A stretch of 50,822 bases of DNA from a virus (Duplodnaviria > Caudoviricetes). Below, piece after piece: positions 1 to 18,214 of this stretch. Position 1 is the first letter of the stretch, and every line of letters starts with the position of its first letter. The stretch covers positions 1 to 50,822 of IMG/VR virus record IMGVR_UViG_3300030450_002767. One strand, 5' to 3'. The notes below the pieces were generated by a model. It saw only the letters and a program-made list of their open reading frames with translations. It did not search any database and was not told where the DNA came from. Both the position numbers and the translations under genes were made by a program.

Positions 1-150
1 CTTGAATTTTTCTACTTCCACACGCTTTCTATCGTTTGTGGATTCTCTTTGAGCTGTTTGTAGGTCTCCCTCTAGCTCTTTAATTTTTCCTTCTTGTTCT
101 TCAACTTGTGCTTGTAACTGTTGTAACATACTTGTTCTCTTTAGAACGCC
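1..150. repeat. Terminal direct repeat (circular-assembly overlap), left copy
   Basis: 1-150 matches 50673-50822 except for 4 substitutions; lies inside the portal gene. Confidence 0.97.
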
Positions 151-2067
151 TTCTGTGTCTGCAACTTCTGTCTGTTCAAGAACTTCTTGCTGGTCTATAA
201 TTCCTTTTTCATATAGACTCATATAATAATCAAATCTTGCCCACCTATTAGATGGTAATGTCCCCCCACTAACTACAATTAAGTCATACTGTCCAATTGT
301 AATATCATTAGTTCTTCCAATAATCTCATTTGTTAAATCATCATATATAGGACTATTAATAGTAGTTTCTTGCTCTGTTCCATCTGGCTTCATTATCCTG
401 ATGATTTTCTCATCAGTATAAGTCTGCTGTATTAAATTAACAATAATTCTTCCCATTTGGTTTAAAGATGCCTCAATATCATCTAACTTTGATTTAATAC
501 GCCTTTGGGAATACTCATCAATAGCGACTGTACCCTTATAAGTACTAGGAGCAGATGATGGGTCTCCGTGCTGTAACGGATGAATGCCTAATATGTGATA
601 TATACTCTGTTTTGCATCTTCTCTATTTTTATATAATTCATTTGGCAGAGGAACTGGCCCAGCGACAACAGGCTGTCCTAGTTCTGGGTCAAACTCAATA
701 ACTCCAGTTCCAGCTCGAGACCATTCTTCTTCAAGCTGTTTTCTATTCATTGAGCCTCTAGGTATGAGCAATTTTGTATTTGTAGAAGATGATGCGTGAG
801 CTATAATAAGTGAAGTAATCTTATTTATATACTCTTGGATAGGTTTTATAAACCTAACATCGCTCATTGGATAAGGATTCCGATTATGCCTGTTCATTAT
901 AGTGACAATCGGATAATCTTGAATATCCATGATATGCATGGCTACCAGCACTCTACCGATTGACAAAATCCTCTTGATTCTATCTACTAATACATTATTG
1001 CAAACGAGTATTCCCTCTGCCAATAATTCATTGTAAGATATAGGAGCTAATTTTGTTTCTGAGCCTGGAATCGCTTCAGGTGTTTCAGGGCCAGGCATCA
1101 TTTGAGGCTGTCCAGTCTGCATGTCCATCATCATGTGAAAGACACCGCCAGTCTGTTGATAAACTTGCAATAACTCTTGAACTTCATACTTACCAGTAAC
1201 GAAGTTTGTTTGACCCTGTGTCTCAACAACCATAGCAGGTTGTTTTAAAAATTCTTCATAATCTCCCTCATCATGAATATACTCTTGTCCATTTGTAGTA
1301 TCTAAACAATGCCAGAAAGGGAGCTTTACTTTTTCATATCTGTCTATTATCTCAAATGTTCTAACATTGGTAACATCGTCTGTGATTGGCCCAACTTGTT
1401 GGTCTTCATTCCCTTCACGACTAGAGCCAGGGTATCTTTCATTAGATGTTTGTGTCATTTGGTCAAGTAATGAACCTTTGCCTTCACCTATTGGCTTTAA
1501 AACAGAAGGATACATTGTTGTAATCTGGTCTTCGGTAAACAATCTAGCAACAATAAGATTACTAGCATCCTTACAAAGAGAATCCCTAGAAGATGGGTCA
1601 ATATATAAATCTAATGGGTCTATACTCTTTAAACATACCTCACCTCTACCAAAATCCATCATTGGGTCTACATATGCTTGTAAAACACCCATTCCTTTTA
1701 CATAATAATCATCAATAGATTGTTTCAGCTCAACACTACCATTTGATGTATCCCAAATATAACTCATGACATCAGAAAATATTCTTCCTATTTTTGTATC
1801 ACTATCATCTCTTCCTGTAGATTGAAACTTTGGTTTATTTGCTGTAAGTAGAGCTTTTGCTTGCTCAACAGCAGGGTGAATTACATTATCAACTATTGGG
1901 GATTGCGCTCTATCTTTTAAGATAGTTTGCTGTTTAGATGTCCATTGAGAGTTATTACGAAACTCGTCATCTTCTACGGCTTGTTTAGCCCAAGATTGAC
2001 GATGTTCTTGATAATCATCAAGTAACTCTTCTGACTTTTGTACTTCTGGATGAATAGGTGCTGGCAT
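1..2067 (-). CDS. Portal protein (P22-like), N-terminal 689 codons; continues across the origin to the stop at 50532 (~735 aa in total)
   Basis: Absent from the ORF track because it runs off the window end. Read by hand from ATG 2067: MPAPIHPEVQ...EDDEFRNNSQWT..LKDRAQSPIVDNVIHPAVEQ..YYVKGMG..LYIDPSSRD, typical of P22-type portals; lies between TerL and scaffold. Confidence 0.9.
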   Translation of the reverse strand, partial: MPAPIHPEVQKSEELLDDYQEHRQSWAKQAVEDDEFRNNSQWTSKQQTILKDRAQSPIVDNVIHPAVEQAKALLTANKPKFQSTGRDDSDTKIGRIFSDVMSYIWDTSNGSVELKQSIDDYYVKGMGVLQAYVDPMMDFGRGEVCLKSIDPLDLYIDPSSRDSLCKDASNLIVARLFTEDQITTMYPSVLKPIGEGKGSLLDQMTQTSNERYPGSSREGNEDQQVGPITDDVTNVRTFEIIDRYEKVKLPFWHCLDTTNGQEYIHDEGDYEEFLKQPAMVVETQGQTNFVTGKYEVQELLQVYQQTGGVFHMMMDMQTGQPQMMPGPETPEAIPGSETKLAPISYNELLAEGILVCNNVLVDRIKRILSIGRVLVAMHIMDIQDYPIVTIMNRHNRNPYPMSDVRFIKPIQEYINKITSLIIAHASSSTNTKLLIPRGSMNRKQLEEEWSRAGTGVIEFDPELGQPVVAGPVPLPNELYKNREDAKQSIYHILGIHPLQHGDPSSAPSTYKGTVAIDEYSQRRIKSKLDDIEASLNQMGRIIVNLIQQTYTDEKIIRIMKPDGTEQETTINSPIYDDLTNEIIGRTNDITIGQYDLIVVSGGTLPSNRWARFDYYMSLYEKGIIDQQEVLEQTEVADTEGVLKRTSMLQQLQAQVEEQEGKIKELEGDLQTAQRESTNDRKRVEVEKFK

Positions 2068-2112
2068 TCTGGGGGCAAAATTGCAAAATAAACTAGGGGA
2101 ACATCAACAGTT

Positions 2113-3594
2113 TTATGCTAACATCCAATCTTTTGCTTTATTTATAATGCTTTTCTTTAATTGATGGCCCTCTATTACCTCATGGTGAGGTGAATAAGAA
2201 TTTTTATTAGCGTAGTATAATCCATCTAATAAGTCATCATGTTTTCCACGAGGAAACAATGAAAGCTCATCTTTTAAATCTTGCATATTTTCAAGTATGT
2301 GAACTTTTCCCCTAGAAAATATAGGCTGTAAGCTCTCAAGTCTTCTAGATTTACTATTTCTTGGATTTTCTTTAATATTTAGCCCTGGAATGAATATATT
2401 TTCTTCTTCACTGCGTTTTATCACATATTCTCTTAACATCTCCTGATAACCAACACTTTCAATACGTGTTCGCTCTGAGCGGTATTTTTTATAATTTTTA
2501 ACAATTGCCTCTGCTAAATTGAGAGGAGTAGCCCTGTCCCTGTAATAAGGCAAAGCATACCTGTTTCCATCTTTATCTACTGCTATATTGAAGATTACAG
2601 AATAATCAGCAGTTTGCTTTGTAGATGAAGCAGGGTCTACTCCTGTGAATATATTAACAGGTACTTCTCGCTTTTGTGGTGATATAATATCCAAAACAGC
2701 ATTTCCTTCTGCATCGTGTCTCACTTCTCCTTTATAGTAATTTAAATCTTCCAATTTAAACAATTGGTCTTCATCTCCAACTATTTCACACATATACTCT
2801 CTATAAAACACAGATAGTCTATTTATAGAGTCTAATTCTTCTTTTTTCTCCTTTAATTTTTTAATTGACCACCAATCTTCCCATAGGGCATATCCTTTAT
2901 CAAAATCTGGCTTATATGTTAAATTCAACCATCCCTTCATATCTTTTAATGTTTCAACTAAGCATCTCTGGTGTTGTGGTGTACCAACAATAATTATCCT
3001 TCCTTTTCTTGGGTCTAGTGAAGGAACTGCTGATTGTAGCAACCAACGTAAGTTGGATTCCATTGCTTCGGCTGTTTTTGTATTGTTTTCATCTTCTGGG
3101 TCATCAACGACAATAAGGCTGGGACGCTGGTTCCCTATTTTTATTCCTCTTAACTGTTGGCCTGTTCCCTTGCATATTATCACTGAGCCATCTTTTAACT
3201 CTACTTCAGCCTTCGCCCAGCTCTTAGCAGAATGTTGACCCCAATAGCCAAACAATTCTCTACACTGGTCGCTATAATCAAGTGTATCTTTTATTAAACC
3301 AAGTAATTTAACAGCATGGTCTTGAGTCCTTGATACTAGGACTATTAATTTTTTACCTTCTCCAAAAAATAAGTGGTGCATTGGAAGAATACCACCAACA
3401 ATGGAACTTTTAGCATGTCCCCTAGGCGCAACAATATTTATCTGCTTATTATCATGATTCATAATGTGCTTTGTTAAATCATAGTGAAAATCGGGAGATT
3501 TAGCAGAAAACATATTTGGGATGCACAATTTCCCAAACATCATCATATCATCTTTTAATCGAAAAAGTATTTCTTTCTTTTTACTCTCTTCCAC
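2113..3594 (-). CDS. terL: Terminase large subunit
   Basis: Walker A APRGHAKS, Walker B LIVVDDPED, GTP coupling motif, nuclease motifs GVDPA and FPRGKHDDLLD. Confidence 0.97.
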   Translation of the reverse strand: MEESKKKEILFRLKDDMMMFGKLCIPNMFSAKSPDFHYDLTKHIMNHDNKQINIVAPRGHAKSSIVGGILPMHHLFFGEGKKLIVLVSRTQDHAVKLLGLIKDTLDYSDQCRELFGYWGQHSAKSWAKAEVELKDGSVIICKGTGQQLRGIKIGNQRPSLIVVDDPEDENNTKTAEAMESNLRWLLQSAVPSLDPRKGRIIIVGTPQHQRCLVETLKDMKGWLNLTYKPDFDKGYALWEDWWSIKKLKEKKEELDSINRLSVFYREYMCEIVGDEDQLFKLEDLNYYKGEVRHDAEGNAVLDIISPQKREVPVNIFTGVDPASSTKQTADYSVIFNIAVDKDGNRYALPYYRDRATPLNLAEAIVKNYKKYRSERTRIESVGYQEMLREYVIKRSEEENIFIPGLNIKENPRNSKSRRLESLQPIFSRGKVHILENMQDLKDELSLFPRGKHDDLLDGLYYANKNSYSPHHEVIEGHQLKKSIINKAKDWMLA

Positions 3595-3788
3595 TAATAA
3601 TCAGCTCCAATTAGATGAGACATGTCATCTTCGTAAGCTTTTAGCCCCATATCTGAAGCAACATCTATTAAAACCTTACTAAATGAATCAAGTTTCTTTA
3701 ATTCCTTCTCGTTCGCCTCAACGACAAAATGTTTTAATATATACCTGGGTTTTTCCCTTTTTTCATCTTTTTCAAGAATTATCTTCAT
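3594..3788 (-). CDS. Hypothetical protein
   Basis: 64-aa ORF overlapping both neighbours in the packaging operon. Confidence 0.7.
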   Translation of the reverse strand: MKIILEKDEKREKPRYILKHFVVEANEKELKKLDSFSKVLIDVASDMGLKAYEDDMSHLIGADY

Positions 3789-4545
3789 TTTGCACCTCTT
3801 TTGTGCTTTCTAGTTTTAATTGACGAGTTTCTTCTGTAGCAATCTCATCAAGTATCTTTTTAGAGACATCAATCTGAATTGTGTCTGTTTGTTGTGTTTT
3901 TGATGGTAACATATCCATTATTTTAATATATTGCTCTGCCCCACGTAGCATATTGCTCGGGTCACCATTATTTCTTGCAATTGTAATGGCTTCTGCTATT
4001 ACATCAAGGACATCTCCCTGATTTAGCTCTCTTTCGTTTAAATATTCTTGAATTTTATCATCTACCATGCCTGATATCCTTTTTTGTTTAAATAATCTTT
4101 TTGCAGTAACTGCTGGTTTTGCTTGGTCTGGTCTATATACGTTCCCAATTTTGTCCCAATCAATTTTTCCAGTGCCAAGCATCATGTTAACATATAGCTT
4201 TACAGCGTTTTTTGTACGTTCTAAGCTAGCTTCTCGCTCAATCCAGGGTCTAGTCCCCGTTTGAGAAAATTCTCCCGTATCCCTATGTGGTTCATACAAT
4301 AATTTAGCATTATCATTTATCCACATCCTTCCATATGGCACAACTACTTGCAAAGCGCTCTTATATTTGGCTCTTTTAAGGCATTCTGCAACATATCCGT
4401 CATCTGAGAGGGCTAATTGTCCCTTTTTTGCCTTTTTCCAATGAACATATGACATTTGTTTCTCTTTTGCCTCTTGTTCAGTCATAATTGGGTAAGTAAC
4501 CTCTTCCCAGTTATTAATCTTCAATTTTCTTGATAGGAAGTCCAT
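3772..4545 (-). CDS. Probable terminase small subunit
   Basis: Upstream of terL; HTH-like segment (KPAVTAKRLFKQKRIS) followed by oligomerisation-like helices (DPSNMLRGAEQYIKIMDM). Confidence 0.6.
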   Translation of the reverse strand: MDFLSRKLKINNWEEVTYPIMTEQEAKEKQMSYVHWKKAKKGQLALSDDGYVAECLKRAKYKSALQVVVPYGRMWINDNAKLLYEPHRDTGEFSQTGTRPWIEREASLERTKNAVKLYVNMMLGTGKIDWDKIGNVYRPDQAKPAVTAKRLFKQKRISGMVDDKIQEYLNERELNQGDVLDVIAEAITIARNNGDPSNMLRGAEQYIKIMDMLPSKTQQTDTIQIDVSKKILDEIATEETRQLKLESTKEVQNEDNS

Positions 4546-4789
4546 CTATTTTCTTTGGTAGTTTGTATTTATCCATAATTTCTTGTGATACATCTAATTT
4601 ATCCATACACTCATTTAGGAACCTCTTTAGATAATCTGCTCCTTGATACCGAGGTTTAGGATATATAACCTCCTCATTTTGACAAAATGTAACCAGAACC
4701 CACGCAAGCTCCTCAAATGTTATTTGGTGTCCATGTACAAAGATAATCTTATCCTTTGGGTGTTTTTTGCCTGGAGCTAACTCTATCAT
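4514..4789 (-). CDS. Hypothetical protein
   Basis: 91-aa ORF overlapping the TerS candidate. Confidence 0.7.
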   Translation of the reverse strand: MIELAPGKKHPKDKIIFVHGHQITFEELAWVLVTFCQNEEVIYPKPRYQGADYLKRFLNECMDKLDVSQEIMDKYKLPKKIDGLPIKKIED

Positions 4790-4791
4790 AG

Positions 4792-4860
4792 TACTGCTGT
4801 ATATATATATATATTACTGTTCATCATACTGTATGTTACATACTGTAGTATATATACTGT
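4792..4860. repeat. Five TACTG(T) short repeats with a (TA)n tract
   Basis: TACTG at 4792, 4815, 4827, 4841 and 4855; TA run at about 4800-4814. Confidence 0.8.
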
Positions 4861-4899
4861 TAAAAAACGAAATAAACCCTATGAATGTCAACATGTTTT

Positions 4900-5094
4900 T
4901 CAATTTTTTTTAGTTTTTGCATAATCAGGGTGAATAAAATCGTAGTTACTCTCTAGAATCATCTGTTTTGTCTCTTCTATGCTAGCTTCTGCTTTGGAGT
5001 ACTCAAAAATATAGAATAAGTCTTCAATATCTGAATCTGTGGCTTCAACTTGTTCAAATCTATTGGTCTTACTATTCCACTTCTCAATTTTCAT
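4900..5094 (-). CDS. Hypothetical acidic protein, first gene of the leftward unit
   Basis: 64-aa ORF, no SD, promoter-like sequence immediately upstream. Confidence 0.7.
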   Translation of the reverse strand: MKIEKWNSKTNRFEQVEATDSDIEDLFYIFEYSKAEASIEETKQMILESNYDFIHPDYAKTKKN

Positions 5095-5099
5095 ACTGG

Positions 5100-5129
5100 A
5101 ATCTACTTAAAGTCACTTGGGTACCACAA
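5100..5129 (-). promoter_or_regulatory. Possible sigma70-type promoter giving a leaderless mRNA
   Basis: TTGTGG-18 nt-TAGATT, ending 5 nt before ATG 5094. Confidence 0.35.
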
Positions 5130-5192
5130 TTGTAAAAATTTTGAAAAAATTATGTTAGAGTGAGTGAACGTAATATATACCATTCCTACCCC

Positions 5193-5288
5193 CCAACGAG
5201 GAGTGTATGGGGGCCGTCTTTTTCGTTGAGAATTATTGCCGTTCCCGTTACCTCAACGAAGATGACAGCCCAGCCTCACTCCTGTTGG
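5193..5288. repeat. GC-rich long imperfect inverted repeat at the strand-divergence point
   Basis: CCAACgAGGAGTG pairs with CACTCCTGTTGG; inner GGGCCGTCTTTTTCGTTGAG pairs imperfectly with CTCAACGAAGATGACAGCCC. Confidence 0.85.
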
Positions 5289-5352
5289 CCCCTGGCTTAT
5301 TTAGCTACGCAGTATGTGTAGTGTTTTAATTAACTAATCATTGGGAGGTCTT

Positions 5353-5676
5353 ATGACTATCGATTTTAAAGCTAAAAATAACAGTTTAGGCAAAGTTAAT
5401 TCTCTAACTAGTATAGAGCTTATTAAGAACAGTATTGAGTACTGGGCTAATAGCTGTGATGCTATCTTTGTATCTTGCTCTGATAAGGGTGACAATGTAC
5501 AACAGGCTAAAGATAAGCTTATGTCCATTGCATCTGCTCAGAAGTTTGAGGATACAGAGCCTACAGAGATAGATTCTAAGTTCGAGAATAACCGTGTCTT
5601 TGTTATGAACAGAGTCAGTTTGAAGAATATTGATGACAATACTGATTTGGCTATGGAAATATTGCTTGGCTCATAA
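5353..5676 (+). CDS. Hypothetical protein, first early gene
   Basis: GGAGG SD before ATG 5353; followed by a terminator. Confidence 0.8.
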   Translation: MTIDFKAKNNSLGKVNSLTSIELIKNSIEYWANSCDAIFVSCSDKGDNVQQAKDKLMSIASAQKFEDTEPTEIDSKFENNRVFVMNRVSLKNIDDNTDLAMEILLGS

Positions 5677-5691
5677 CTGTTGAGTGATGTG

Positions 5692-5721
5692 AAAGGGTTT
5701 GCGTGTGTGCAGACCCTTTTT
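5692..5721 (+). terminator. Intrinsic terminator
   Basis: AAAGGGTTTGC-GTGTGT-GCAGACCCTTT stem running into a T tract. Confidence 0.75.
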
Positions 5722-5772
5722 AAATCCGTGCATAAAAAGCAATGCTAATCAAAAACCGAAGGAGAATAGTGT

Positions 5773-5913
5773 ATGTCTAACATAGTTCGTGCGACAGAAA
5801 ACTATTGGTTGATTGAATCTGGTTTTGGTACAATTGTTGAGGTAAGTAGGGAGCAGTATCCTACGCTTATGTCTGCAATTATCGAAGCTAGGCGTCATCT
5901 GATAGAAGGTTGA
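5773..5913 (+). CDS. Small hypothetical protein (46 aa)
   Basis: AAGGAG SD; MSNIVRATENYWLIESGFGTIVEVSREQYPTLMSAIIEARRHLIEG; below the ORF-track cutoff. Confidence 0.7.
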   Translation: MSNIVRATENYWLIESGFGTIVEVSREQYPTLMSAIIEARRHLIEG

Positions 5914-5925
5914 TGTTAATTGAAT

Positions 5926-6099
5926 AAGATTCGGAGTGTAACGAGCTTGGCAACAGAAATGCGTAGTTCCTTAAAATTTGTTTGTAGGTATGAAAAAACC
6001 TTCGATGCCCACTCATCAATAAGTGGCGACTAGTGTTGGAGAAACTGGTTGGGAGATAGAGCGTCCAATAGATAGTGTTTAGACCTACTATCTTTTTTT
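5926..6099 (+). ncRNA. Putative structured small RNA ending in a terminator
   Basis: No ORF with SD; several hairpins, CTTGGCAACAGAA motif at 5946-5958, terminator at 6070-6099. Confidence 0.45.
6070..6099 (+). terminator. Intrinsic terminator
   Basis: AGATAGT...ACTATCT stem followed by a T run. Confidence 0.65.
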
Positions 6100-6187
6100 A
6101 ACTATGCAGAGGGAGCTGGGTAAACCAGAGTAGTGGTAGGCAGTGGTGGGCTAGGTTGAAAAGCACTAGTCGTGTACGCATAGTTAA
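6098..6187 (+). ncRNA. Putative structured RNA module (~90 nt)
   Basis: Perfect 10-bp closing stem TTAACTATGC/GCATAGTTAA; inner CTGG-GTAAA-CCAG and CTAG..CTAG arms. Confidence 0.5.
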
Positions 6188-6244
6188 TATTTGTTACTAA
6201 ATGTAATATTGAGCAAGATGTTGATACATTTAGTTTTATATAGT

Positions 6245-6337
6245 TGAAAAAAGGGTGGATAAATACTGACGAGTATTGACTGTGGCCAGAGTTCCACGCT
6301 GTGCTGAGTAGCATTGCTGGTTTTCGCCCTTTTTTCA
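6245..6337 (+). ncRNA. Putative cloverleaf-shaped RNA module
   Basis: Closing stem TGAAAAAAGGGTGGA/TTCGCCCTTTTTTCA enclosing three hairpins. Confidence 0.55.
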
Positions 6338-6438
6338 CGGATTTAAGGTGTATGTGTGTTTTCTCACTTTTGTGACTATAGACTGTTAACCTTTCTACCC
6401 GAAGATAAATGGACAGTAACCTCAAAAGTGTAATAATT

Positions 6439-6512
6439 AGCGGAGACAAGCTTTGGTAGGCTAATCAGGCTCATATCCTGACTTATTGTGAGTTCGATTC
6501 TCACCTCCGCAA
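6439..6512 (+). tRNA. tRNA-Met(CAT), initiator-like and degenerate
   Basis: Acceptor GCGGAG/CTCCGC with an unpaired 1:72; anticodon arm TCAGG-CTCATAT-CCTGA; T arm GTGAG-TTCGATT-CTCAC; lacks U8 and A14; followed by CTA instead of CCA. Confidence 0.8.
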
Positions 6513-6522
6513 CTAAAAATTT

Positions 6523-6919
6523 GGGAATTGCATTCTGATATGTGTAACTACCAAGATATAGTGTGAACCTAAAGAAACTAATCTTTAGAAACTTCCTATT
6601 TATACTATTACCACTGATATAATGGTATGTGTAAAAACGATAACAGTTGTTGTAACTGTAGTACTTTCATGGGGTCTCCTAAAGAGATGTGATGGGTACA
6701 AGAAATGTTAAATCTATCGTTAGGTCGTATAATTTATATCTCGCATTACCGAAGACGGAGAAGTCCAATGTATCGGAGGATTATAATCGCTTATTTAACT
6801 GTTTAGCTAGCACTTAATATAAGTTATCCTACACAATGTAAACTGTGTTCTAAAGACAGCATTGTTATATCTTGACCGTAACTGGTATATCTAACCAACG
6901 GGGAAAGAATGCAATTCCC
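6523..6919 (+). ncRNA. Large (~397 nt) structured non-coding RNA candidate
   Basis: Perfect 14-bp closing stem GGGAATTGCATTCT/AGAATGCAATTCCC, nested CAAGATATA/TATATCTTG, many internal hairpins, no ORF >=60 aa. Confidence 0.7.
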
Positions 6920-6948
6920 TATAGTTTAAAATAAAAAAGGAGTATAGA

Positions 6949-7182
6949 ATGTTTAAATACAGAAAGTATTATGAATTTTATAATGTCACGGTACATGATG
7001 TGGCTATTAATATTTTTAATAGATTGTATAGATTGTCTTTTACTATTAAATATCCATCTTATAACTTAGAGATATTTGATAATAACGGTCATAAAAGAAT
7101 ATATGAAACAGCTTGGTTCTCTGATAGGTTTGAAAATCATTTAGAAGATGAAGTTAAGAAAAGAGAGGAATCTGATGACTGA
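6949..7182 (+). CDS. Hypothetical protein
   Basis: AAGGAG SD; 77 aa. Confidence 0.8.
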   Translation: MFKYRKYYEFYNVTVHDVAINIFNRLYRLSFTIKYPSYNLEIFDNNGHKRIYETAWFSDRFENHLEDEVKKREESDD

Positions 7183-7420
7183 ATCACATACTGTAAAAGA
7201 TAAATATATAATGTATGACCATGAAGTGATAAAAACACTTAATTTAATAAAAGAAATGATTCTTGATAAGCGCACAAAAACAAGATTTGACCATGTTAGA
7301 GGTAATGTGGAAAATAAAGAAATAATGATAGATGCGATTGATAGAGCTATTTGTATTATTCGTGATGAAGATTTCATTGCAGATGATATGAATCCATTTG
7401 TAAAAAACTTAACTGATTAG
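7175..7420 (+). CDS. Hypothetical protein
   Basis: GAGG SD before ATG 7175, overlapping the previous stop region. Confidence 0.75.
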   Translation: MTESHTVKDKYIMYDHEVIKTLNLIKEMILDKRTKTRFDHVRGNVENKEIMIDAIDRAICIIRDEDFIADDMNPFVKNLTD

Positions 7421-7464
7421 TTAAATGCCTGTCCTGCTCTTGTCTAGGATAGTTGTACCAATTA

Positions 7465-7620
7465 ATGTGACGAAAAGTTGTCCGCTGTGAACTAATTTCA
7501 TTCCTAGGGTGAAGGCAGTGAAGGAGCCACGACAAAGTAATTATGTTTATTGGATAAACGCAACAATCTTAGAAACCTCTGTTAACACTGCAAAGTACTC
7601 GAGTCCCTTCAGTGCCACAT
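7465..7620 (+). ncRNA. Putative structured intergenic RNA with alternative pairings
   Basis: GGCAGTGAAGG (7514-7524) pairs with CCTTCAGTGCC (7606-7616, one mismatch); its GCAGTG core can instead pair with CACTGC (7586-7591). Confidence 0.45.
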
Positions 7621-7708
7621 ATTTGTTAAAAGAGAGCTGGATAGGCGGTGATTTAGATAGGGTGTATATTGTGACTATCTAGTTTTAAACACATCGTTAT
7701 ACTGTGTC

Positions 7709-7780
7709 TGCTTAATAATGTATAACAAGGGTTCTTTTCATAATTATTCCTTTGGTACCCTTTGAGAGAGTTATTAAGCA
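7709..7780 (+). promoter_or_regulatory. Long bulged hairpin (RNase III-site-like or terminator)
   Basis: TGCTTAATAAT/GTTATTAAGCA with inner AAGGGT/ACCCTT, followed by a T run. Confidence 0.55.
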
Positions 7781-7807
7781 ATTTTTTAAAATAAAAAGGA
7801 GGACATA

Positions 7808-7987
7808 ATGTCTAATATTACAAAACAAGTAAGTAAAAATGATTTTAAACAATATAAAGTTGTTCAAGAATCAGGTGATTATAATATGCTCGACCGAAGA
7901 GCTAGGGAATTAACATCTTTATCTAAAGATACTTGGTTTCTTATTGTTCAGAATTATTCTGAATTAAATGAGGCTTACTCTAAATGA
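7808..7987 (+). CDS. Small protein, DUF5049-like (59 aa)
   Basis: AAGGAGG SD; VQESGDYNMLD motif recalls the common phage xxSGxxNMxD family; below the ORF-track cutoff. Confidence 0.7.
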   Translation: MSNITKQVSKNDFKQYKVVQESGDYNMLDRRARELTSLSKDTWFLIVQNYSELNEAYSK

Positions 7988-8097
7988 TTAGTTTTTTATC
8001 ACAGCCATATGTATTTATAACTTTGTTAATTACTGCATATGGATTAATAACTTATTTAATATTTAATGATTATAAAGGAGGAAATGAAAATGATTAA
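7984..8097 (+). CDS. Single-pass membrane peptide (37 aa)
   Basis: ATGA overlap with the upstream gene; MISFLSQPYVFITLLITAYGLITYLIFNDYKGGNEND. Confidence 0.55.
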   Translation: MISFLSQPYVFITLLITAYGLITYLIFNDYKGGNEND

Positions 8098-8539
8098 ATA
8101 TCAACAAGGTGATGTTGTTTTAACAACTATGACACCTAGTGAAATAAAACATATGGAAAAGAATACTGCTAAATCTGACCCAGAGGATAATAGTTGGAGT
8201 CATGCTAGTCAAGCTAGGAATGAAGCATTTTCTAAAAGACAAAATACAACTTCTGATGCAAAATGTATACTTGCATTAGGTGAACATACAGGTCATCATC
8301 ACAGGTTTGAAGCTAATAAAATGAATGGATTTATAGCTGAAAGTATCTATGCGAATTATGATAGAATACATGAACCATCATATGTTAGAATTTCAGAAAC
8401 TAAAAAAACTTCTGGAAAGGGTGCAATGCTTTATCATGAAGAACATAATCCTATAACAATACCACCTGGTGTTTATAAAAAGACAATTGTTCGAGAGTTT
8501 GACCATTTAACATTAGATACAAGGAGGGTAGTAGATTGA
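8090..8539 (+). CDS. His-rich QGDV-family protein, usual partner of DUF6745 genes
   Basis: YQQGDV, LALGEHTGHHH and HEEHNPITIPPGVY..VREFD motifs; AAGGAGG SD. Confidence 0.8.
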   Translation: MIKYQQGDVVLTTMTPSEIKHMEKNTAKSDPEDNSWSHASQARNEAFSKRQNTTSDAKCILALGEHTGHHHRFEANKMNGFIAESIYANYDRIHEPSYVRISETKKTSGKGAMLYHEEHNPITIPPGVYKKTIVREFDHLTLDTRRVVD

Positions 8540-9549
8540 TGATACGTAGCGTATGGAACGATAAACAAAATTCTGAGCAGTTATTTGATAGGTTTGAAAG
8601 ACTAAAAAGTAACGGTATAGGCTCTGTTTGGATTGACCATGTTAATTATACTAGAAAAGCTATATGGGTATGTGTTGGTAAAAACAAGGTAGTTGCTTAT
8701 GATGATTATGCCAGTCATGGTATGAATATTGGAACACCATCTGTTGAATTAACAAAAGATTCTATTATAATACATGATAGAAGTTTCTTTAGTCAATCAG
8801 CTTGTTTACTTGGAATACCATTTAACAATGTAGTTAAATTGCATAGTAGATGGTCTAGATGGACTCGTCCTATTGACTCAGATATGAACGATACTAGTGT
8901 TGAAGGTCAGGATTGGTTAACTGATAAAAATCATACAAAAGAAATACCAGTTGGTAAAGGCTGGTATCATTATGAAGACGGAATGCCTACTAAACATCTT
9001 CCTTTAAAGTTTAATTGGGATTATGAATTAATTGATTTCAAATTACCTAAAAACTTTAAAAATAGTGCTAAAGAATGGCTTGAAGCTAGAAGAATCCAAA
9101 GAAATACATCTTCTCGTGCTAGATATGCTAATAGAAAAGCTGAAGAAAGAGTTGATAATGGAATCTATGAGATGGATGATATATTCAAGTTAAATAATGT
9201 ATCAATAAGAAGAATCTTGATTCAACATTTTGGTATGGATACTGTCTTAAATACTCTTGATTCTGAAATATTAGATATTGATACTATTGATAAAAGAGCA
9301 TATGAACTTGTTAAAGTAAGTATACCTGATAGTAATTCCGACTCTGGTTTTAGAGATGGTAATTATTTAAGAATGATTAATCCATCTACTGGAGAAACTC
9401 ATTTTGAAGGTGTGCCTAATCATAGACCAGAAGGACGAACTGGTTGGATGGGTCGTGAAGTTCTTGATGAACCAACAGTTAAATGTGCTTTAGCTTGGAG
9501 AGATAGTGATGCAAATCAAAAGTATGTCGAGCCAATTGTATTGACATGA
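8536..9549 (+). CDS. Protein with a C-terminal DUF6745-like domain
   Basis: NVSIRRILIQHFG, LRMINPSTGETHFEGVP and TVKCALAW motifs. Confidence 0.7.
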   Translation: MMIRSVWNDKQNSEQLFDRFERLKSNGIGSVWIDHVNYTRKAIWVCVGKNKVVAYDDYASHGMNIGTPSVELTKDSIIIHDRSFFSQSACLLGIPFNNVVKLHSRWSRWTRPIDSDMNDTSVEGQDWLTDKNHTKEIPVGKGWYHYEDGMPTKHLPLKFNWDYELIDFKLPKNFKNSAKEWLEARRIQRNTSSRARYANRKAEERVDNGIYEMDDIFKLNNVSIRRILIQHFGMDTVLNTLDSEILDIDTIDKRAYELVKVSIPDSNSDSGFRDGNYLRMINPSTGETHFEGVPNHRPEGRTGWMGREVLDEPTVKCALAWRDSDANQKYVEPIVLT

Positions 9550-9755
9550 TTACAGAAAAAGATATTATTATGGACAATATATATGAAACAATACAATTAG
9601 GAGATTGGTTAGGAGATATATGTGATGATGAGGTTAAAAGAAAAGATGTCATTCATTATATGATGGAAGATTTTAGTTTAGATAAACCTACTGCTGAACA
9701 GTTATTAGAAATGTTTTATTTAAACAATATCGACTTAGAACCTAGCTGGAAATAA
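9546..9755 (+). CDS. Hypothetical acidic protein
   Basis: ATGA coupling; 69 aa. Confidence 0.75.
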   Translation: MITEKDIIMDNIYETIQLGDWLGDICDDEVKRKDVIHYMMEDFSLDKPTAEQLLEMFYLNNIDLEPSWK

Positions 9756-9764
9756 AGTTAAATA

Positions 9765-9890
9765 TGAAATAGAGATAAGATGGGTTTGTGCAATCCAAGA
9801 AGGTAGTCAATCCATGCACCACATTAGTTTGTGTATATTTGAGTTAATCGGAAGAACCGTAGCGCTCATCGATTCTTGTCTCTATTTTCA
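9765..9890 (+). ncRNA. Putative structured intergenic RNA (~125 nt)
   Basis: TGAAATAGAGATAAGA/TCTTGTCTCTATTTTCA closing stem; inner GATGGG/CTCATC, GTGCA/TGCAC and CGG/CCG arms. Confidence 0.55.
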
Positions 9891-9904
9891 TGAAAAGAGG
9901 GCTT

Positions 9905-10144
9905 ATGTTAAAAAGTAAAAAACAATATGTTCGTGGTGCATATCATATTAAAAACCACTATGGTAATGATTTACCTTTATACTCATTTAAGAGATTTATT
10001 AAAAATATAGGTCGAAAATATAAATTTCATTGGAGTTTAAATAAAGTTATTAACTGGACTAAGTATTCTTATACTTACTTAGATGATAATTTTACAGTAT
10101 GTGATAAAATTAAAATAATGTATATATATAAAAGGATAACATGA
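9905..10144 (+). CDS. Hypothetical basic protein
   Basis: GAGG SD before ATG 9905; ATGA overlap with the next gene. Confidence 0.6.
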   Translation: MLKSKKQYVRGAYHIKNHYGNDLPLYSFKRFIKNIGRKYKFHWSLNKVINWTKYSYTYLDDNFTVCDKIKIMYIYKRIT

Positions 10145-10548
10145 AATTAAAACAATTACAAGTAGTTAAAACTACTCAAGAACAAGAACTAGATATAGTT
10201 CAAGTCTGGGAATCTGGTATAGATAGGTCTGAATTCAATTGGATAAAATTGGGATATGTATGCTATGGTATGCAAAATGATGTGGGATATTCTAGATTAT
10301 ATGTTATGCTAGGAATTAAGCGGGATGCGAAGAATAAGCTAAAGCCAACTATTGTTGAAGTTACAGAAAAATATTATTCCTGTGAAGGAAATTATGATTA
10401 TGAAGAATTTGAACTACATCATTCCCCAAGGAAAAATCATCATGCTCAAGATATAGTTTATTATAAATGTCCTAGAAATTTTAATGCTGTATTGGAAACA
10501 ATTATAGGCAAAGATACTAGGACTAAAGATAAAGGAGAATGGATTTGA
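10141..10548 (+). CDS. Hypothetical protein
   Basis: AAGGA SD; 135 aa. Confidence 0.8.
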   Translation: MKLKQLQVVKTTQEQELDIVQVWESGIDRSEFNWIKLGYVCYGMQNDVGYSRLYVMLGIKRDAKNKLKPTIVEVTEKYYSCEGNYDYEEFELHHSPRKNHHAQDIVYYKCPRNFNAVLETIIGKDTRTKDKGEWI

Positions 10549-10790
10549 ATAAAAAATGGTACGATGTAGGAGAATTATTTGACATCGAAAAAGATATGCC
10601 TTGGTATATAAAAGAAATGAAGCCTTACAAACCCAATGACCAAAGAGTATGGACTAAGATAAAAGTAAAACTTTGTCCAGAATGCAATGATTGCTGGGAA
10701 TATGACAGATATAGTAGAGAAAGAATATTTGTATATGATGAGTTTCCAAAATATAAACTAAAAAAGGAAACTTGTGTAAGATGCAAATAG
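10539..10790 (+). CDS. Zinc-ribbon protein
   Basis: CPEC..CW and a C-terminal CVRC; AAGGAG SD. Confidence 0.8.
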   Translation: MDLNKKWYDVGELFDIEKDMPWYIKEMKPYKPNDQRVWTKIKVKLCPECNDCWEYDRYSRERIFVYDEFPKYKLKKETCVRCK

Positions 10791-10793
10791 AAC

Positions 10794-10823
10794 TTGATTT
10801 ATATAATAATTTATATTTAAATT
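10794..10823 (+). promoter_or_regulatory. Possible sigma70-type promoter
   Basis: TTGATT-18 nt-TAAATT in an AT-only gap, just ahead of the GAGG SD. Confidence 0.4.
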
Positions 10824-10834
10824 AAAGGTGAGGT

Positions 10835-11146
10835 ATGGAAATTAAACAAGACACTTTAGAAAAGATGCTAAATGTTTCTTATCGTAATATATATAGTAAT
10901 AGCGATAAGATAAGAGCATCACTTAAAGGTGATTATTATGCTCAGAAAATTATTGAAATAAGAAGTATGAGTAAGTTTAAGCTAACTAAGTTTATATCTG
11001 ATACGAAAAGTAAAAAGGGCGTAAAGCTCGGATATAGAATAGCAAGAGTTAGTTCTTCTAAGATATATAGAAAGTTGGACTCCGAAATTCAACAGGACAT
11101 AGAACTTATTAATTATGCCCGTAATAGGTTATATGCTAAAATCTAA
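10835..11146 (+). CDS. Hypothetical basic protein (possible nucleic-acid binder)
   Basis: GGTGAGG SD; K/R-rich 103 aa. Confidence 0.75.
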   Translation: MEIKQDTLEKMLNVSYRNIYSNSDKIRASLKGDYYAQKIIEIRSMSKFKLTKFISDTKSKKGVKLGYRIARVSSSKIYRKLDSEIQQDIELINYARNRLYAKI

Positions 11147-11156
11147 GAAGGATATC

Positions 11157-11205
11157 GTGGCTCTCTCAGCAGTTTTTTTATACATTTATTCTCTGAGAGA
11201 GTCAC
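11157..11205 (+). promoter_or_regulatory. 13-bp hairpin covering the initiation region of the next gene
   Basis: GTGGCTCTCTCAG/CTGAGAGAGTCAC ends just before the TTG start at 11207. Confidence 0.6.
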
Positions 11206-11206
11206 T

Positions 11207-11422
11207 TTGAATCAAAAGATAGTTAACAAAATCAAAGAACGACTTGAAAAAGGTAAAAAAGAATACGGTGATGAGCTTAATGTTCATGATGGTAGAGATT
11301 GGTTACAAGAATCGATAGAAGAATTACTCGATACTTGTGTATACTTATCTGCTTTTGCACTACAACTTCAAGAAAGGACTAAAAATGAAAATAAATCAAA
11401 CAATAATAAAAAAAGAGTTTAG
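11207..11422 (+). CDS. All-alpha (MazG/DUF5664-like) dNTP pyrophosphohydrolase-like protein
   Basis: GKKEYG...DWLQESIEELLDTCVY pattern (GxxxYG, ExxEExxD). Confidence 0.65.
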   Translation: MNQKIVNKIKERLEKGKKEYGDELNVHDGRDWLQESIEELLDTCVYLSAFALQLQERTKNENKSNNNKKRV

Positions 11423-11585
11423 CAAAGCAAGGGTTCAGCTAAGTGCCAATACTCTTGACATGATTAATCGTGAATTATTAATGACTGTTAAGAGAATGGC
11501 TCAAAGATGTGTTGATGGTAATGTTAAAAGATTAACACCTGAACTATTTTATGTTGCTTTAGGGAAATTAAATAACGATGCTTGA
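11385..11585 (+). CDS. Histone-fold protein (66 aa)
   Basis: AAGGA SD before ATG 11385; short helix, RVQLSANT loop, long helix, KRLTPELF loop, short helix, as in prokaryotic histones. Confidence 0.7.
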   Translation: MKINQTIIKKEFSKARVQLSANTLDMINRELLMTVKRMAQRCVDGNVKRLTPELFYVALGKLNNDA

Positions 11586-11745
11586 TACAATAGCAATAAC
11601 AAATGATAATTTTATTTCTTTTATATATTGGTTAGTGGATGAAAACTATATAAGCGACAACTCTAGAGCTGTTTGTTTAGTAGTAGAAAAACCCTGGAAA
11701 TATCAAAAAGAATATGAGGTGTTTATAGATGAGCAATATGAATAA
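11578..11745 (+). CDS. Small hypothetical protein (55 aa)
   Basis: Fills the gap and overlaps both neighbours; contains VVEKPWKYQKEYE. Confidence 0.7.
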   Translation: MLDTIAITNDNFISFIYWLVDENYISDNSRAVCLVVEKPWKYQKEYEVFIDEQYE

Positions 11746-11956
11746 TAAAATATATGCTAATATGGCTACTCATAGATATCAACAGCTTGTAAAGCTATTA
11801 GGTCAAATAGAGAATGTTGACAGACAAAGAATGTCTAATTCTAGTCAAATTTGGCTTGATGAAATATGGTCACTCTTAGGTCTCCCTACCTATGAGGAGA
11901 ATCAAAAATTAATTAGGGAAAGTGCGGAACATTTAAAAAGTGATGAGGAGGAATAA
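11729..11956 (+). CDS. Hypothetical protein
   Basis: GAGGT SD; 75 aa; TAATG coupling to the next gene. Confidence 0.75.
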   Translation: MSNMNNKIYANMATHRYQQLVKLLGQIENVDRQRMSNSSQIWLDEIWSLLGLPTYEENQKLIRESAEHLKSDEEE

Positions 11957-12957
11957 TGAGTCACATGATTGAAAGTATGTTCTATGTTGGGGATAAACCT
12001 TGGCATGGAATTGGTACACCATTAGAAAAGTCTCCAAGTATAGAAGATGCTTTGGAGCTAGCTGGCCTTGATTGGAAAGTTAAAAAAATACCAACCTTCT
12101 ATAATAGCACTAGTAAGTTAGGGTTTAAAACTAATTTACCAACTGGTCATTTTGTTACCATTAGAGATAATGGACAAGTACTAGGTAATGTAGGTACTAA
12201 ATATGAAATATTACAAAATGTAGATGCTTTTGCACCATTTAATGTGATAAAAGATTATGGTTATACATTAGAAACTGCTGGTTCTATTGATGATGGTAAG
12301 AGAGTTTGGATACTTGCAAAGACTCCAGACCATTACCTTGTTGGTGATGATAAAATTCTAGACTATGTATTGTTATATACTAGTCATGATGGCAGTTCTG
12401 GTAGTTGTTTTAGAGATGTATTTATCCGTGTTGTTTGTCAGAATACACTTTCTGCGTCACTTTCTGGTAAAAAGACATTTGAATACAAACTAAGACATAC
12501 TAGTAGTATAAAAGACAGAGTTACTGAGCTAACTGATAAGTTACATAATCGTAAGGGTAATATAGCTAAAGCAGTAGATTCAATGAACTCATTTCTTGAT
12601 ATTCCAATGAATGAAAAAGACCTTGATATTTATTTAGATGCAGTAATGCCATTCTTGAATAATAGACATAAGGAATCAAACAAAGAACTTGGAATATTAA
12701 CTAGAAATAAAGCTCTTCCAGTTTATAATGCTATTAAACAAGCATTTTATACTGGTAAAGGAAATAAAGGTGAGACATTATGGGATGCTTATAACGCAGT
12801 TACTGAGTATCACGACCATATTAAATCTCACACTCAAGATTGGGTAAAATCTACTCAATTTGGAGCTTCTAGTAGACATAAGAAAAATGCTTTCTTTGTT
12901 GCTAGTCAGATTGTTAAAAAGCATAATACGAAAACTACAATTGGAGGACTATCTTGA
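11956..12957 (+). CDS. DUF932 (TIGR03299-like) phage/plasmid protein
   Basis: PWHGIG, AGLDW, ETAGSIDDGKRVW, SHDGS, RVVCQNTL, RHT and TLWDAYNAVTEY motifs. Confidence 0.92.
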   Translation: MSHMIESMFYVGDKPWHGIGTPLEKSPSIEDALELAGLDWKVKKIPTFYNSTSKLGFKTNLPTGHFVTIRDNGQVLGNVGTKYEILQNVDAFAPFNVIKDYGYTLETAGSIDDGKRVWILAKTPDHYLVGDDKILDYVLLYTSHDGSSGSCFRDVFIRVVCQNTLSASLSGKKTFEYKLRHTSSIKDRVTELTDKLHNRKGNIAKAVDSMNSFLDIPMNEKDLDIYLDAVMPFLNNRHKESNKELGILTRNKALPVYNAIKQAFYTGKGNKGETLWDAYNAVTEYHDHIKSHTQDWVKSTQFGASSRHKKNAFFVASQIVKKHNTKTTIGGLS

Positions 12958-13793
12958 AAATGGTAGAAACAATAATGGCAGAACATCCTTATCAACTTCG
13001 TAAAGAAGATTATGAGGAGTTTAAAGAAACTCTAAATACTGGGTTTACTGCTGAATATTTATCTTGGTCAGTTTGCTGGGATAAATTAAAACAGATGTAT
13101 CCTTATGCTGTTGCAGAGAATGTTGTATATGAATATGATGGAAAACCTATCTTTGGGATTATGTTCCCAGATGGCTCTATTCAGGTTCATTGTAGAATCC
13201 ATTATGAAAATGCGGATGGTAATTCCTATTCTCATAATGAATATCTAGCGGTTAGAGATAAACGCAATCAAGCAATATCTAATCCGAATTCAGCACAAGT
13301 AGAAAATACTTATCGCAGAGCTTTGGCTAAAGGTGTTTCAACATTAACTGGCTATGGTATTAGTTTGTGGATGAATGAAGACCTTCGAGAAATGATGCAT
13401 ACTGAGACTCGCTTAGATGCGTCTGTTCCTAAAGAAGGTGAAATTACAGTAGACCAGAATGTTAAACTTGATAAACTAATGCGTGACCCAAAGACAACTA
13501 AATCTGATAAAGCCAGGATTAAAGCTTTAAAAGATAATAATTGGAAAGTCGATGGTGTTGTTATCACTGAAGTTATTGCGCAAGCTTTAATAGGTGATGT
13601 TGAAATTGGTAGAAAGTCAAATATGAAAGCTACTAAGAAATCTATTGATTCTTTAAAAGAGAAGATATTAGATGATAATAATGGTTTAACTGATGATATT
13701 CGCAAGAAGAGTATCGGGTGGTTAGATGAACAACCTAGAACAGTAGGAGAAGTGCTAGCCATTACTCTTAAACTAGGATTAAAGGAGGACTAA
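12954..13793 (+). CDS. Single-strand annealing protein, Sak3/DUF1071 (Rad52-like), with C-terminal extension
   Basis: YLSWSVCWDKLKQMYP...RRALAKG...GYGISLW..ED. Confidence 0.8.
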   Translation: MKMVETIMAEHPYQLRKEDYEEFKETLNTGFTAEYLSWSVCWDKLKQMYPYAVAENVVYEYDGKPIFGIMFPDGSIQVHCRIHYENADGNSYSHNEYLAVRDKRNQAISNPNSAQVENTYRRALAKGVSTLTGYGISLWMNEDLREMMHTETRLDASVPKEGEITVDQNVKLDKLMRDPKTTKSDKARIKALKDNNWKVDGVVITEVIAQALIGDVEIGRKSNMKATKKSIDSLKEKILDDNNGLTDDIRKKSIGWLDEQPRTVGEVLAITLKLGLKED

Positions 13794-14420
13794 ATGTCTG
13801 GATTTACATTAGAAAAAAGCACTAGTAATCAATCTCAAAAAGATTGGCCTAAAGGTGTTTATATTGACCGTGTAAAGATAACTAAAGTTGAAAATAAAGA
13901 GAGCAAATGGAATGACATTAACCTCTTTATAGAAGCTGAAGATGTCAGCGGTAGGAGTAAATATCCTAAAAAGTTCTTTCTTGGTGGTAAGCATCTTAAA
14001 GACGGAGATAAATTCGTTGGATGGGGCTCTACTAGCAAGGGAGTTACTGGTGGTAGCTGGAAAGTAAGAGATTTTCTTATTGATGCAGGTATTGAAAAAT
14101 CTACTAATATGATTACCGAAGATGGTAGTCTTTCTGATGAGATAATTGCTGATTTGCATGGTCGTGAAGTGTTTATACTTCAATATGATTCAAACGGTAA
14201 ATATTCTCGTGAGACTTGGTATTATTTTCAATCCCCTGAAAATGGAGATGCAATTAAAGACTTATTAGCAAAGTGGAATGGCTTTGATGATAAACCTAAT
14301 AAGTATCTTCATTCAAATAAGATAGAAGTTCAGAATAAGAAGCTTAACAACATGTGGGATAATCTTCCTGCTGGAAAAAGCGATACTGAATCTGAGCTAG
14401 ACTCTGTTTTAGGCGGTTAA
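13794..14420 (+). CDS. Probable ssDNA-binding protein (DUF669-like OB fold)
   Basis: Follows the annealase; N-terminal PKGVY..VKITKVE; acidic C-terminal tail. Confidence 0.55.
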   Translation: MSGFTLEKSTSNQSQKDWPKGVYIDRVKITKVENKESKWNDINLFIEAEDVSGRSKYPKKFFLGGKHLKDGDKFVGWGSTSKGVTGGSWKVRDFLIDAGIEKSTNMITEDGSLSDEIIADLHGREVFILQYDSNGKYSRETWYYFQSPENGDAIKDLLAKWNGFDDKPNKYLHSNKIEVQNKKLNNMWDNLPAGKSDTESELDSVLGG

Positions 14421-14755
14421 TGTCTTACGATTTTAGTAAGGTGTTAGAAAGAAGCAATGGAACTAAGGGGCGTGGCAATTCTGCCATGCTCCTTGAGTTT
14501 CTAAAAAATAAAAGAGGTCAAACCATTGCTAATCATGTAATCCAAACTGATGCTGTTAATTATCTAAATAATATGTATGGGAAATTAGTATCTCCTGATA
14601 CATTAAGTAGATTATGGAGAAGCTTGCGTGAGGAATATAATGATGATAAAAATAATTCTAAACTTTTTAAGTTTGGGATAAGCGTTTCTGAAAAGAAAGA
14701 GAATAAATCAACTCAAAAACATTATTACATAGGATTTTCAAATGAACATAGCTGA
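14420..14755 (+). CDS. Probable winged-helix DNA-binding protein
   Basis: SPDTLSRLWRSLRE recognition-helix-like segment followed by a beta hairpin. Confidence 0.55.
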   Translation: MSYDFSKVLERSNGTKGRGNSAMLLEFLKNKRGQTIANHVIQTDAVNYLNNMYGKLVSPDTLSRLWRSLREEYNDDKNNSKLFKFGISVSEKKENKSTQKHYYIGFSNEHS

Positions 14756-14927
14756 TATTAGTGAATTTGTAGATATTGAATACCCTGATGTTTGTGATGA
14801 ATGTGGAAAAACATGCGAAGGCAATGTTGCTGAAGTGGATGGTATTGGTAAATACTGTGCATATGAAAATGATGGAGAACTTTATGGTTGTTATTATGAG
14901 GTTAAAGAAGAGATAGCCAATGAATAG
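14742..14927 (+). CDS. Small acidic Cys-rich protein
   Basis: CDECGKTC..C..C; overlaps both neighbours. Confidence 0.7.
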   Translation: MNIADISEFVDIEYPDVCDECGKTCEGNVAEVDGIGKYCAYENDGELYGCYYEVKEEIANE

Positions 14928-17257: not shown

Positions 17258-17258
17258 T

Positions 17259-17540: not shown

Positions 17541-17545
17541 ATAAT

Positions 17546-17677: not shown

Positions 17678-17682
17678 TAATT

Positions 17683-17752: not shown

Positions 17753-17769
17753 ACAAACTAAAATAGGAG

Positions 17770-18122: not shown

Positions 18123-18126
18123 AACT

Positions 18127-18195: not shown

Positions 18196-18214
18196 ACAGA
18201 GGTTAGGATAGAAT

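Follow-up and report, generated by a model that had tools for sequence, protein, structure and literature searches.

The window analyzed in this study corresponds to the complete, 50,822-bp record of a tailed phage (IMG/VR IMGVR_UViG_3300030450_002767), which encodes a portal protein, a large terminase, a Sak-like annealing protein and a primase-helicase. No GenBank phage has a large terminase with more than 26% identity to that of the window, and the genome represents a lineage of uncultured marine tailed phages without a cultured relative. Genes at positions 1–5094 are located on the minus strand and those from approximately 5353 to 18517 on the plus strand. Roughly 1.4 kb into the plus-strand unit, 3′ of small genes at 5353–5676 and 5773–5913, lies the element described here (6523–6919, plus strand), for which an ornate non-coding RNA had been proposed from inspection of the nucleotide sequence (hereafter the original prediction). 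Comparative analysis indicates that the element very probably specifies a genuine structured RNA of a new family.

Homologs of the element and conservation of its structure

The RNA family comprises eight distinct sequences, i.e. that of the window and seven others of phage or metagenome origin (designated L009, L002, L006, L016, L010, L021 and L018), which together represent approximately four clades. A search of the viral collection with a neighboring 257-aa protein yielded eight loci, three of which (those of L009, L002 and L006) gave a positive result in blastn with the element; most of the remaining loci stop short of the site. L016 and L010 were added by exact-pattern scans of the same collection: five scans were performed, and each time the identical five contigs were returned, together with one chance match (L014). 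A single pattern scan of metagenomes detected eight stretches, including two new sequences, L021 and L018. The blastn identity to the window element was 85% (L016), 82% (L010), 81% (L009), 77% (L002) and 70% (L006). Across all eight sequences, 249 alignment columns are invariant. Conservation begins and ends at the closing helix of the predicted fold, and in six of the eight genomes the flanking DNA is unalignable on both sides.

The distribution of the element appears to be narrow. No blastn match was found among GenBank phages (“distant” mode, with 6300–7000 as the query), and two exact-pattern scans of 185,579 prokaryote genomes detected no copies; since these were exact-pattern searches, divergent members may have been missed. 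The neighboring 337-aa protein, used as a query, identified no relative. An alignment-based search with the 257-aa neighbor yielded 15 loci, and nhmmer found the RNA in just three of them, all already-known contigs. A covariance model (R1), built on the central domain (6636–6721) only, retrieved nothing but known copies from 16 sources. Four loci (L007, L031, L033 and L037) contain sufficient upstream DNA, yet the RNA was absent according to R1; more generally, distant phage relatives in which the neighboring protein is 64–73% identical lack the element by both nhmmer and R1. In one of these loci, L007 (neighbor protein 68% identical), the equivalent site (locus positions 7961–8260) is occupied by an unrelated intergenic region of approximately 280 nt, with no copy of the RNA.

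Covariation among the homologs provides the main evidence for the fold. RNAalifold analysis of the first six sequences identified 100 pairs, 32 of which showed compensatory double changes. The structure used for all eight sequences consists of the RNAalifold pair table supplemented with two long-range pairings that emerged when all conserved runs were compared with one another for complementarity. It contains 111 pairs in 20 helices (18 nested and two pseudoknots), and 99.1% of the 888 cells are standard pairs. As many as 38 of the 111 pairs are changed on both sides, compared to 1–10 in six slid controls, in which the 3′ partner was displaced by 1–3 columns (pairing of 33–44%). When the alignment columns were shuffled 500 times, no shuffle scored as high for pairing, double changes or covariation (four of five measures). 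Since the alignment-derived structure was tested on the same alignment, the count was repeated for a structure obtained by energy minimization from the window copy only. This fold (129 pairs, 89.2% pairing) contains 42 double-change pairs, compared to 6–16 in the slid controls, and again none of the 500 shuffles was as high on four measures.

In the plus orientation the element folds with an energy of −103.2 kcal/mol (z = −3.65 versus dinucleotide shuffles, only one of 100 shuffles being as good). A protein-coding function was rejected: the longest open reading frame (ORF) in the window's element encodes 42 aa, every homolog has at least five stop codons per frame, and no ORF position is conserved. 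The absence of ORFs of at least 60 aa, as stated in the original prediction, was thus confirmed.

Terminal symmetry of the type observed here may also be a property of DNA, e.g. of a replication origin or cruciform, a recombination site or a miniature inverted-repeat transposable element (MITE). The window copy is bracketed by perfect 14-bp inverted repeats (6523–6536 / 6906–6919), exactly as had been proposed, it is located close to the divergent strand switch, at which the cumulative GC skew changes direction, and its minus strand also surpasses shuffled sequences in folding (z = −3.05). However, the 14-bp repeat is unexceptional when considered alone (the genome contains six such pairs within 600 nt), and the GC skew turns at the point where the orientation of the genes changes. 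Moreover, 71 cells are occupied by G-U pairs; the opposite strand, or a DNA cruciform, would have A-C mismatches at these positions, so that pairing falls from 99.2% (read as plus) to 90.6% (read as minus). This indicates that selection acts on the plus-strand RNA and not on a DNA cruciform, and upholds the earlier argument for the plus strand, which was also based on G-U pairs. A DNA site would not need approximately 20 helices and two pseudoknots to be maintained by selection. Since the element is present in a single copy in the window genome, it is not a MITE; the inverted repeat is there, but neither a flanking direct repeat (target-site duplication) nor a nearby transposase was seen. A function at the DNA level is therefore extremely improbable.

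Searches of Rfam 15 revealed no match at the gathering thresholds in the whole window or in the seven homologous loci, and the element alone gave no match even at E≤10. At this permissive threshold the L006 copy produced chance-level hits only (small nucleolar RNAs, microRNAs and similar), and a permissive search of region 5000–7300 of the window returned a weak tRNA-Sec and chance-level mir-153, cyano_het_sRNA and U7, all outside 6523–6919. Because there is no Rfam match, the element is not GOLLD, ROOL, a group I or group II intron, RNase P, tmRNA or a small ribozyme, as these are modeled in Rfam. This agrees with the original prediction, in which the RNA could be assigned neither to tmRNA or RNase P nor to the two intron groups and an undescribed class was suggested. 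The three conditions under which that prediction would have failed (a known Rfam family, lack of covariation among homologs, or folding no better than that of shuffled controls) were all contradicted by the results. A full-text literature search, which did not extend to the supplementary motif lists of PMC5737381, found no description of such an RNA.

The size of the element, its compact pseudoknotted fold and its long invariant single-stranded stretches are nevertheless typical of large ribozymes, and the sharp boundary of conservation at the closing helix, with variable flanks, resembles that of a discrete, possibly mobile unit. Such features would suit a novel ribozyme that cleaves or processes itself, or a very divergent intron-like element able to excise itself at the closing helix. 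We consider a catalytic RNA of this kind improbable, given that no group I, group II, RNase P or small-ribozyme model was matched at E≤10, the element is single-copy, no conserved gene is interrupted, the flanks are unrelated, and removal of the element restores neither an ORF nor an RNA. Since it interrupts no gene, it does not qualify as a conventional intron. Group I introns have a comparable size range, a pseudoknotted core and are known from phages, but the absence of both a model match (P3–P9 core) and an insertion into a gene led to the rejection of this candidate; nor could any counterpart of P7, with its guanosine-binding site, be assigned. The likeness of 6553–6562 to the consensus of the group I “S” element was also rejected, because these bases form the covarying helix 3 and not a junction strand.

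Architecture of the fold and competing pairings

The coordinates of the structural features are presented in Table 1. In the alignment structure, helix 1 (6524–6537 / 6905–6918) comprises 13 pairs, five of which are changed on both sides; the closing helix is 10–12 bp long in the relatives. It leads to an outer junction formed with a 3-bp hairpin (6542–6551), helix 3 and hairpins 19/20. Helix 3 (CAAGATATA/TATATCTTG), in which five of the nine pairs are changed on both sides, opens a five-way junction shared by helix 4, helices 14/15, the variable arm (helix 16) and helices 17/18. Helix 4 (four of six pairs changed on both sides) encloses the local hairpin (6569–6588), helices 6/7 and the four-way domain of helices 9–13.

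Table 1. Structural features of the RNA and the adjacent tRNA-like gene (window coordinates; PK, pseudoknot).
Feature	Position	Strand	Remarks
Non-canonical tRNA-like gene	6440–6511	+	CAU anticodon, 6-bp acceptor stem; 11 nt 5′ of the RNA, outside the conserved RNA
Whole structured RNA	6523–6919	+	~397 nt, 18 nested helices, 4 multistem junctions, at least 2 pseudoknots; defined by covariation and unalignable flanks
Closing helix 1, 5′ strand	6523–6537	+	Partner 6905–6919
Helices 3 and 4, 5′ strands	6552–6566	+	6552–6560 with partner 6866–6874; 6561–6566 with partner 6741–6746
Local hairpin	6569–6590	+	6569–6575 / 6582–6588; 6583–6590 alternatively pairs with the hairpin 18 loop
Helices 6 and 7	6600–6634	+	Loop 6616–6622 is the PK1 5′ strand
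Central four-way-junction domain, helices 9–13	6636–6721	+	Part with the highest sequence conservation
PK1 3′ strand and helix 4 3′ strand	6734–6746	+	6734–6740, followed directly by 6741–6746
Helices 14 and 15	6749–6776	+	Invariant GAAG loop (6760–6763) on a covarying stem 15
Variable arm, helix 16 and interior	6777–6830	+	~45-nt insertion in L006 and L018
Helices 17 and 18	6833–6865	+	9-nt loop 6847–6855 is the partner of 6583–6590 (PK2)
Helix 3, 3′ strand	6866–6874	+	Pairs with 6552–6560
Hairpins 19 and 20	6876–6901	+	Loop with invariant AUAUC (6887–6891), complementary to GAUAU (6537–6541)
Closing helix 1, 3′ strand	6905–6919	+	From the RNAalifold pair table

Most of the inner helices that had been proposed from the window sequence are kept in all eight homologs, several of them with double changes. 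The TACCA/TGGTA helix (6609–6613 / 6623–6627) is changed on both sides at two of five pairs. Within the central domain, AACGAT/ATCGTT (6636–6641 / 6716–6721) is invariant save for the replacement of U-A by U-G, ACAGTT/AACTGT (6643–6648 / 6654–6659) and GTCTC/GAGAT (6674–6678 / 6684–6688) are retained in each sequence, and GTAC../..GTAC (6661–6665 / 6695–6699) has three of five pairs changed on both sides. CCGA/TCGG (6749–6752 / 6773–6776) is invariant. Changes on both sides were also found in helix 15 (two of three pairs), helix 16 (AGGAT/ATCCT, 6777–6781 / 6826–6830; four of five) and helix 18 (all four).

The homologous regions of L006 (7108–7558, minus strand) and L018 (3874–4320, plus strand) carry the insertion in the variable arm as an extra hairpin within helix 16, and the remainder of the fold is kept. 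A UAGCUA palindrome is present in the variable arm of six of the eight sequences; the idea that it constitutes a dimerization loop was dropped, as the palindrome is partly within a predicted stem. A similar CUAA(A/U) motif is found in three loops of the window RNA, i.e. in the local hairpin (6576–6581), helix 12 (6679–6683) and helix 18 (6847–6855). This motif could be a repeated protein- or RNA-binding site. A candidate tertiary pair between CUUCC and the GAAG loop is invariant and hence beyond the scope of covariation analysis, and a second GAAG makes the identity of the partner ambiguous.

Two pseudoknots are included in the structure. PK1 (6616–6622 / 6734–6740) consists of seven pairs, with 100% of cells paired and two double changes; one of its pairs occurs as G-C, A-U or G-U, and another as A-U or U-A. 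PK2 (helix 5; 6583–6590 / 6848–6855) consists of eight pairs, with 98.4% of cells paired and four double changes. The 5′ strand of PK2 is also part of the local hairpin CTAAAGA/TCTTTAG, a component of the original prediction that was recovered in all eight single-sequence folds and is compensated in the divergent L006/L018 pair. The proposed hairpin is thus supported, but it competes with the long-range pairing: strand 6583–6588/6590 has two mutually exclusive partners and covaries with both. Since both of these exclusive pairings covary, the RNA probably adopts two states, either successively or by switching back and forth. The dual pairing could represent (i) a conformational switch, (ii) an ordered folding pathway or (iii) an intermolecular contact.

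A further competing pairing, GATATGT/GTATATC (6537–6543 / 6885–6891), is present as predicted and competes with hairpins 19 and 20. It is invariant in all eight sequences and is therefore outside the reach of the covariation test. Single-sequence folding of L002 and L006 produced this pairing instead of hairpins 19/20, and it may constitute a third pseudoknot.

Genomic context and transcription

The RNA is co-oriented with the adjoining run of small genes in all eight genomes. In the seven genomes with the gene families of the window, it is preceded by the first small genes of the unit departing from the divergent control region; these genes belong to the same 107-aa and 46-aa families in four cases (the window, L009, L002 and L021). 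In the window, the operon carrying the RNA leads to genes for recombination and replication. The RNA is contained within a stretch of approximately 1 kb (5914–6948) of this presumed early operon that is devoid of credible ORFs. Two terminator-like hairpins (~5685–5722 and ~6057–6100), read by eye and not listed in the promoter scan, are located upstream of the RNA.

According to the original prediction, the RNA is placed immediately downstream of a tRNA gene. A cloverleaf is indeed encoded 11 nt upstream, but it is not a canonical tRNA: ARAGORN identified no tRNA or tmRNA in the window and no tRNA in nine related loci, and the best match in the Rfam clan (tRNA-Sec, 6440–6510) scored 30.1 bits, i.e. 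below the threshold of 47. The copies in the window and in L009 (7882–7949, minus strand) share the cloverleaf, a normal T-loop, the CAU anticodon and an acceptor stem of 6 bp instead of 7 bp. Comparison of these two copies revealed paired changes in the acceptor, anticodon and T stems; the cloverleaf is thus preserved by compensatory changes. A second inverted repeat (6236–6255 / 6327–6346) is located 5′ of the tRNA-like gene, and the 6238–6345 portion of the ORF-free stretch is not kept in L009.

The tRNA-like gene precedes the RNA in only two of the eight genomes. Adjacency to a tRNA therefore does not define the family, and neither the parallel with tRNA-linked GOLLD and ROOL nor the release of the 5′ end by tRNA processing, both of which had been put forward, can be general.

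Transcription was examined in public RNA data. From 22 public runs sharing words with region 6000–7400, four RNA libraries belonging to four studies were compared with the window, and each yielded one contig identical to it (0 differences): 6658–6808, 6706–6899, 6726–6905 and 6884–7138. The last of these bridges the element and the next gene. The contigs hint weakly that the element is transcribed and that transcripts extend into the next gene; stretches of 6000–7400 without such coverage carry no evidential weight. Short mismatched pieces from RNA libraries (6096–6186, 6921–6955 and 7131–7167) were rejected, as they derive from other sequences.

This arrangement raises the question of whether the element acts in cis, as a leader or as an intercistronic structure that controls the read-through, processing, stability or translation of downstream genes in the presumed early operon. 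The exclusive pairings of 6583–6590, both of which covary, would then serve as a switch, either riboswitch-like or in the manner of a co-transcriptional timer. In support of such a role, no U tract follows the closing helix, the RNA-library contig runs from the element into the next gene, the terminator-like hairpins read by eye are located upstream in the same transcription unit, and in five of the eight genomes a ribosome-binding site and start codon are found within approximately 50 nt. However, the downstream gene is not conserved: the ORFs starting within this distance in five genomes belong to three gene families, and in the other three genomes the gap exceeds 200 nt. In addition, the ribosome-binding site is outside the structure and is sequestered by no conserved helix, and known leaders of this type would seem to need far less than the four junctions and two or more pseudoknots packed into approximately 400 nt. 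We regard a cis-acting element as unlikely.

Further along the window, a DUF932 protein (11956–12957, plus strand; Pfam E = 3e-41) adjoins the Sak-like annealing protein within the replication/recombination module. One other neighboring protein gave a score for a PDDEXK endonuclease family that was below the Pfam cut-off. Two giant ORFs are present on the minus strand: the first (19830–29384; 3184 aa) has no PHROG matches and the second (37863–45710; 2615 aa) matches tail-fiber families.

Nature and possible role of the RNA

In our preferred reading, favored with moderate confidence as a whole, the element encodes a self-contained, highly structured non-coding RNA of approximately 400 nt, which is not in Rfam and is restricted, within the reach of the searches, to a single lineage of marine tailed phages that have not been cultured. 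With regard to its mode of action, we incline slightly towards a scaffold acting in trans rather than a cis-regulator or a ribozyme. The RNA would be transcribed within the presumed early transcript, no terminator-like U tract being present after it, and would function as a compact, folded particle, whether released by excision or retained as a structured block of the transcript. For excision, the tRNA-like gene would supply a processing site in the two genomes in which it occurs. The folded RNA might then bind or sequester a host or phage macromolecule, or associate with itself in the manner of ROOL and GOLLD.

The RNA is of the same general kind as ROOL and GOLLD, but belongs to neither family. 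Both are described as phage or prophage RNAs, often found near tRNAs, with numerous junctions and pseudoknots and a poorly conserved linker (PMC5737381; bioRxiv 10.1101/2024.12.08.627333). Many GOLLD members exceed 800 nt, and one marine GOLLD is located downstream of a Met-tRNA gene (bioRxiv 10.1101/2024.12.08.627333). ROOL has a mean length of 581 nt, six junctions and three pseudoknots, and is known from three phyla (PMC5737381); no protein partner is reported for it. ROOL and GOLLD form RNA-only cages, whose intermolecular contacts were first seen as covariation (bioRxiv 10.1101/2024.12.08.627333).

The element shares with GOLLD its phage origin, large size, complex fold and, in two genomes, an upstream CAU tRNA-like gene; by analogy with the covarying GOLLD contacts that proved to be intermolecular, PK2 might be interpreted in the same way. 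It differs in its length, in the lack of a match to the GOLLD model at E≤10 and in the fact that adjacency to a tRNA is not conserved. Its architecture, in which four multistem junctions are combined with two or more pseudoknots and with the variable arm, is reminiscent of ROOL. Unlike ROOL, whose Rfam model was also not matched, the RNA described here is 397 nt long, is much more conserved in sequence and is represented by eight sequences of a single marine phage lineage.

The pRNA of phage phi29 is another structured phage RNA; it is transcribed early and forms homo-oligomers through covarying loop-loop pairs. It is approximately 170 nt long and is encoded by phages whose genome is protein-primed and which possess a dedicated packaging ATPase. 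No similarity in sequence or model was seen, Rfam having given no match of any kind, and the phage analyzed here has an ordinary large terminase and portal.

Several observations weigh against the preferred reading. The RNA-library contigs are of low depth (2–5×), may result from DNA carry-over and are mute on ends, strand and abundance; contig 6884–7138 fits a cis-acting leader just as well. No promoter could be assigned (nine promoter-like sites were found, compared to 9.4 expected in shuffles), and a TGGACA/AATAAT site at 6410–6437 is conserved in L009, as are all its surroundings. Nor could a terminator be assigned, there being no U-rich tract 3′ of helix 1. No partner protein is evident: when 20 neighboring proteins were compared with Pfam, only the DUF932 protein was above the cut-off. 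Since distant relatives lack the RNA, it must be dispensable for the lineage as a whole. As for the structural tests, the measure “further standard pair types” was no better than in shuffled alignments (128 of 500 shuffles were as high for the alignment structure and 468 of 500 for the single-sequence fold), and the folding z-scores of two homologs are modest (−2.31 and −2.05). Finally, as the eight sequences represent approximately four clades of one phage lineage, independent compensatory events are far fewer than cells.

A more far-reaching possibility, which we regard as doubtful at present, is that the RNA founds a new large functional class with a biochemistry of its own, either (i) a self-assembling, RNA-only particle of the ROOL/GOLLD type with subunits of approximately 400 nt or (ii) a ribozyme or ligand-responsive switch active in early infection. 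In the self-assembly version, PK2 (6583–6590 with loop 6848–6855) would be an intermolecular bridge that competes with the local hairpin.

Bacteria and phages rarely encode large RNAs of complex fold, and, as stated in PMC5737381, known classes have repeatedly yielded new biochemistry. The RNA presented here would add a family to Rfam, as a compact case of approximately 400 nt with unusually dense covariation support, and its size is suited to direct structural work (chemical probing, cryo-electron microscopy). It also allows the question of why ornate RNAs are carried by phages next to tRNA-like genes to be tested independently in a second system.

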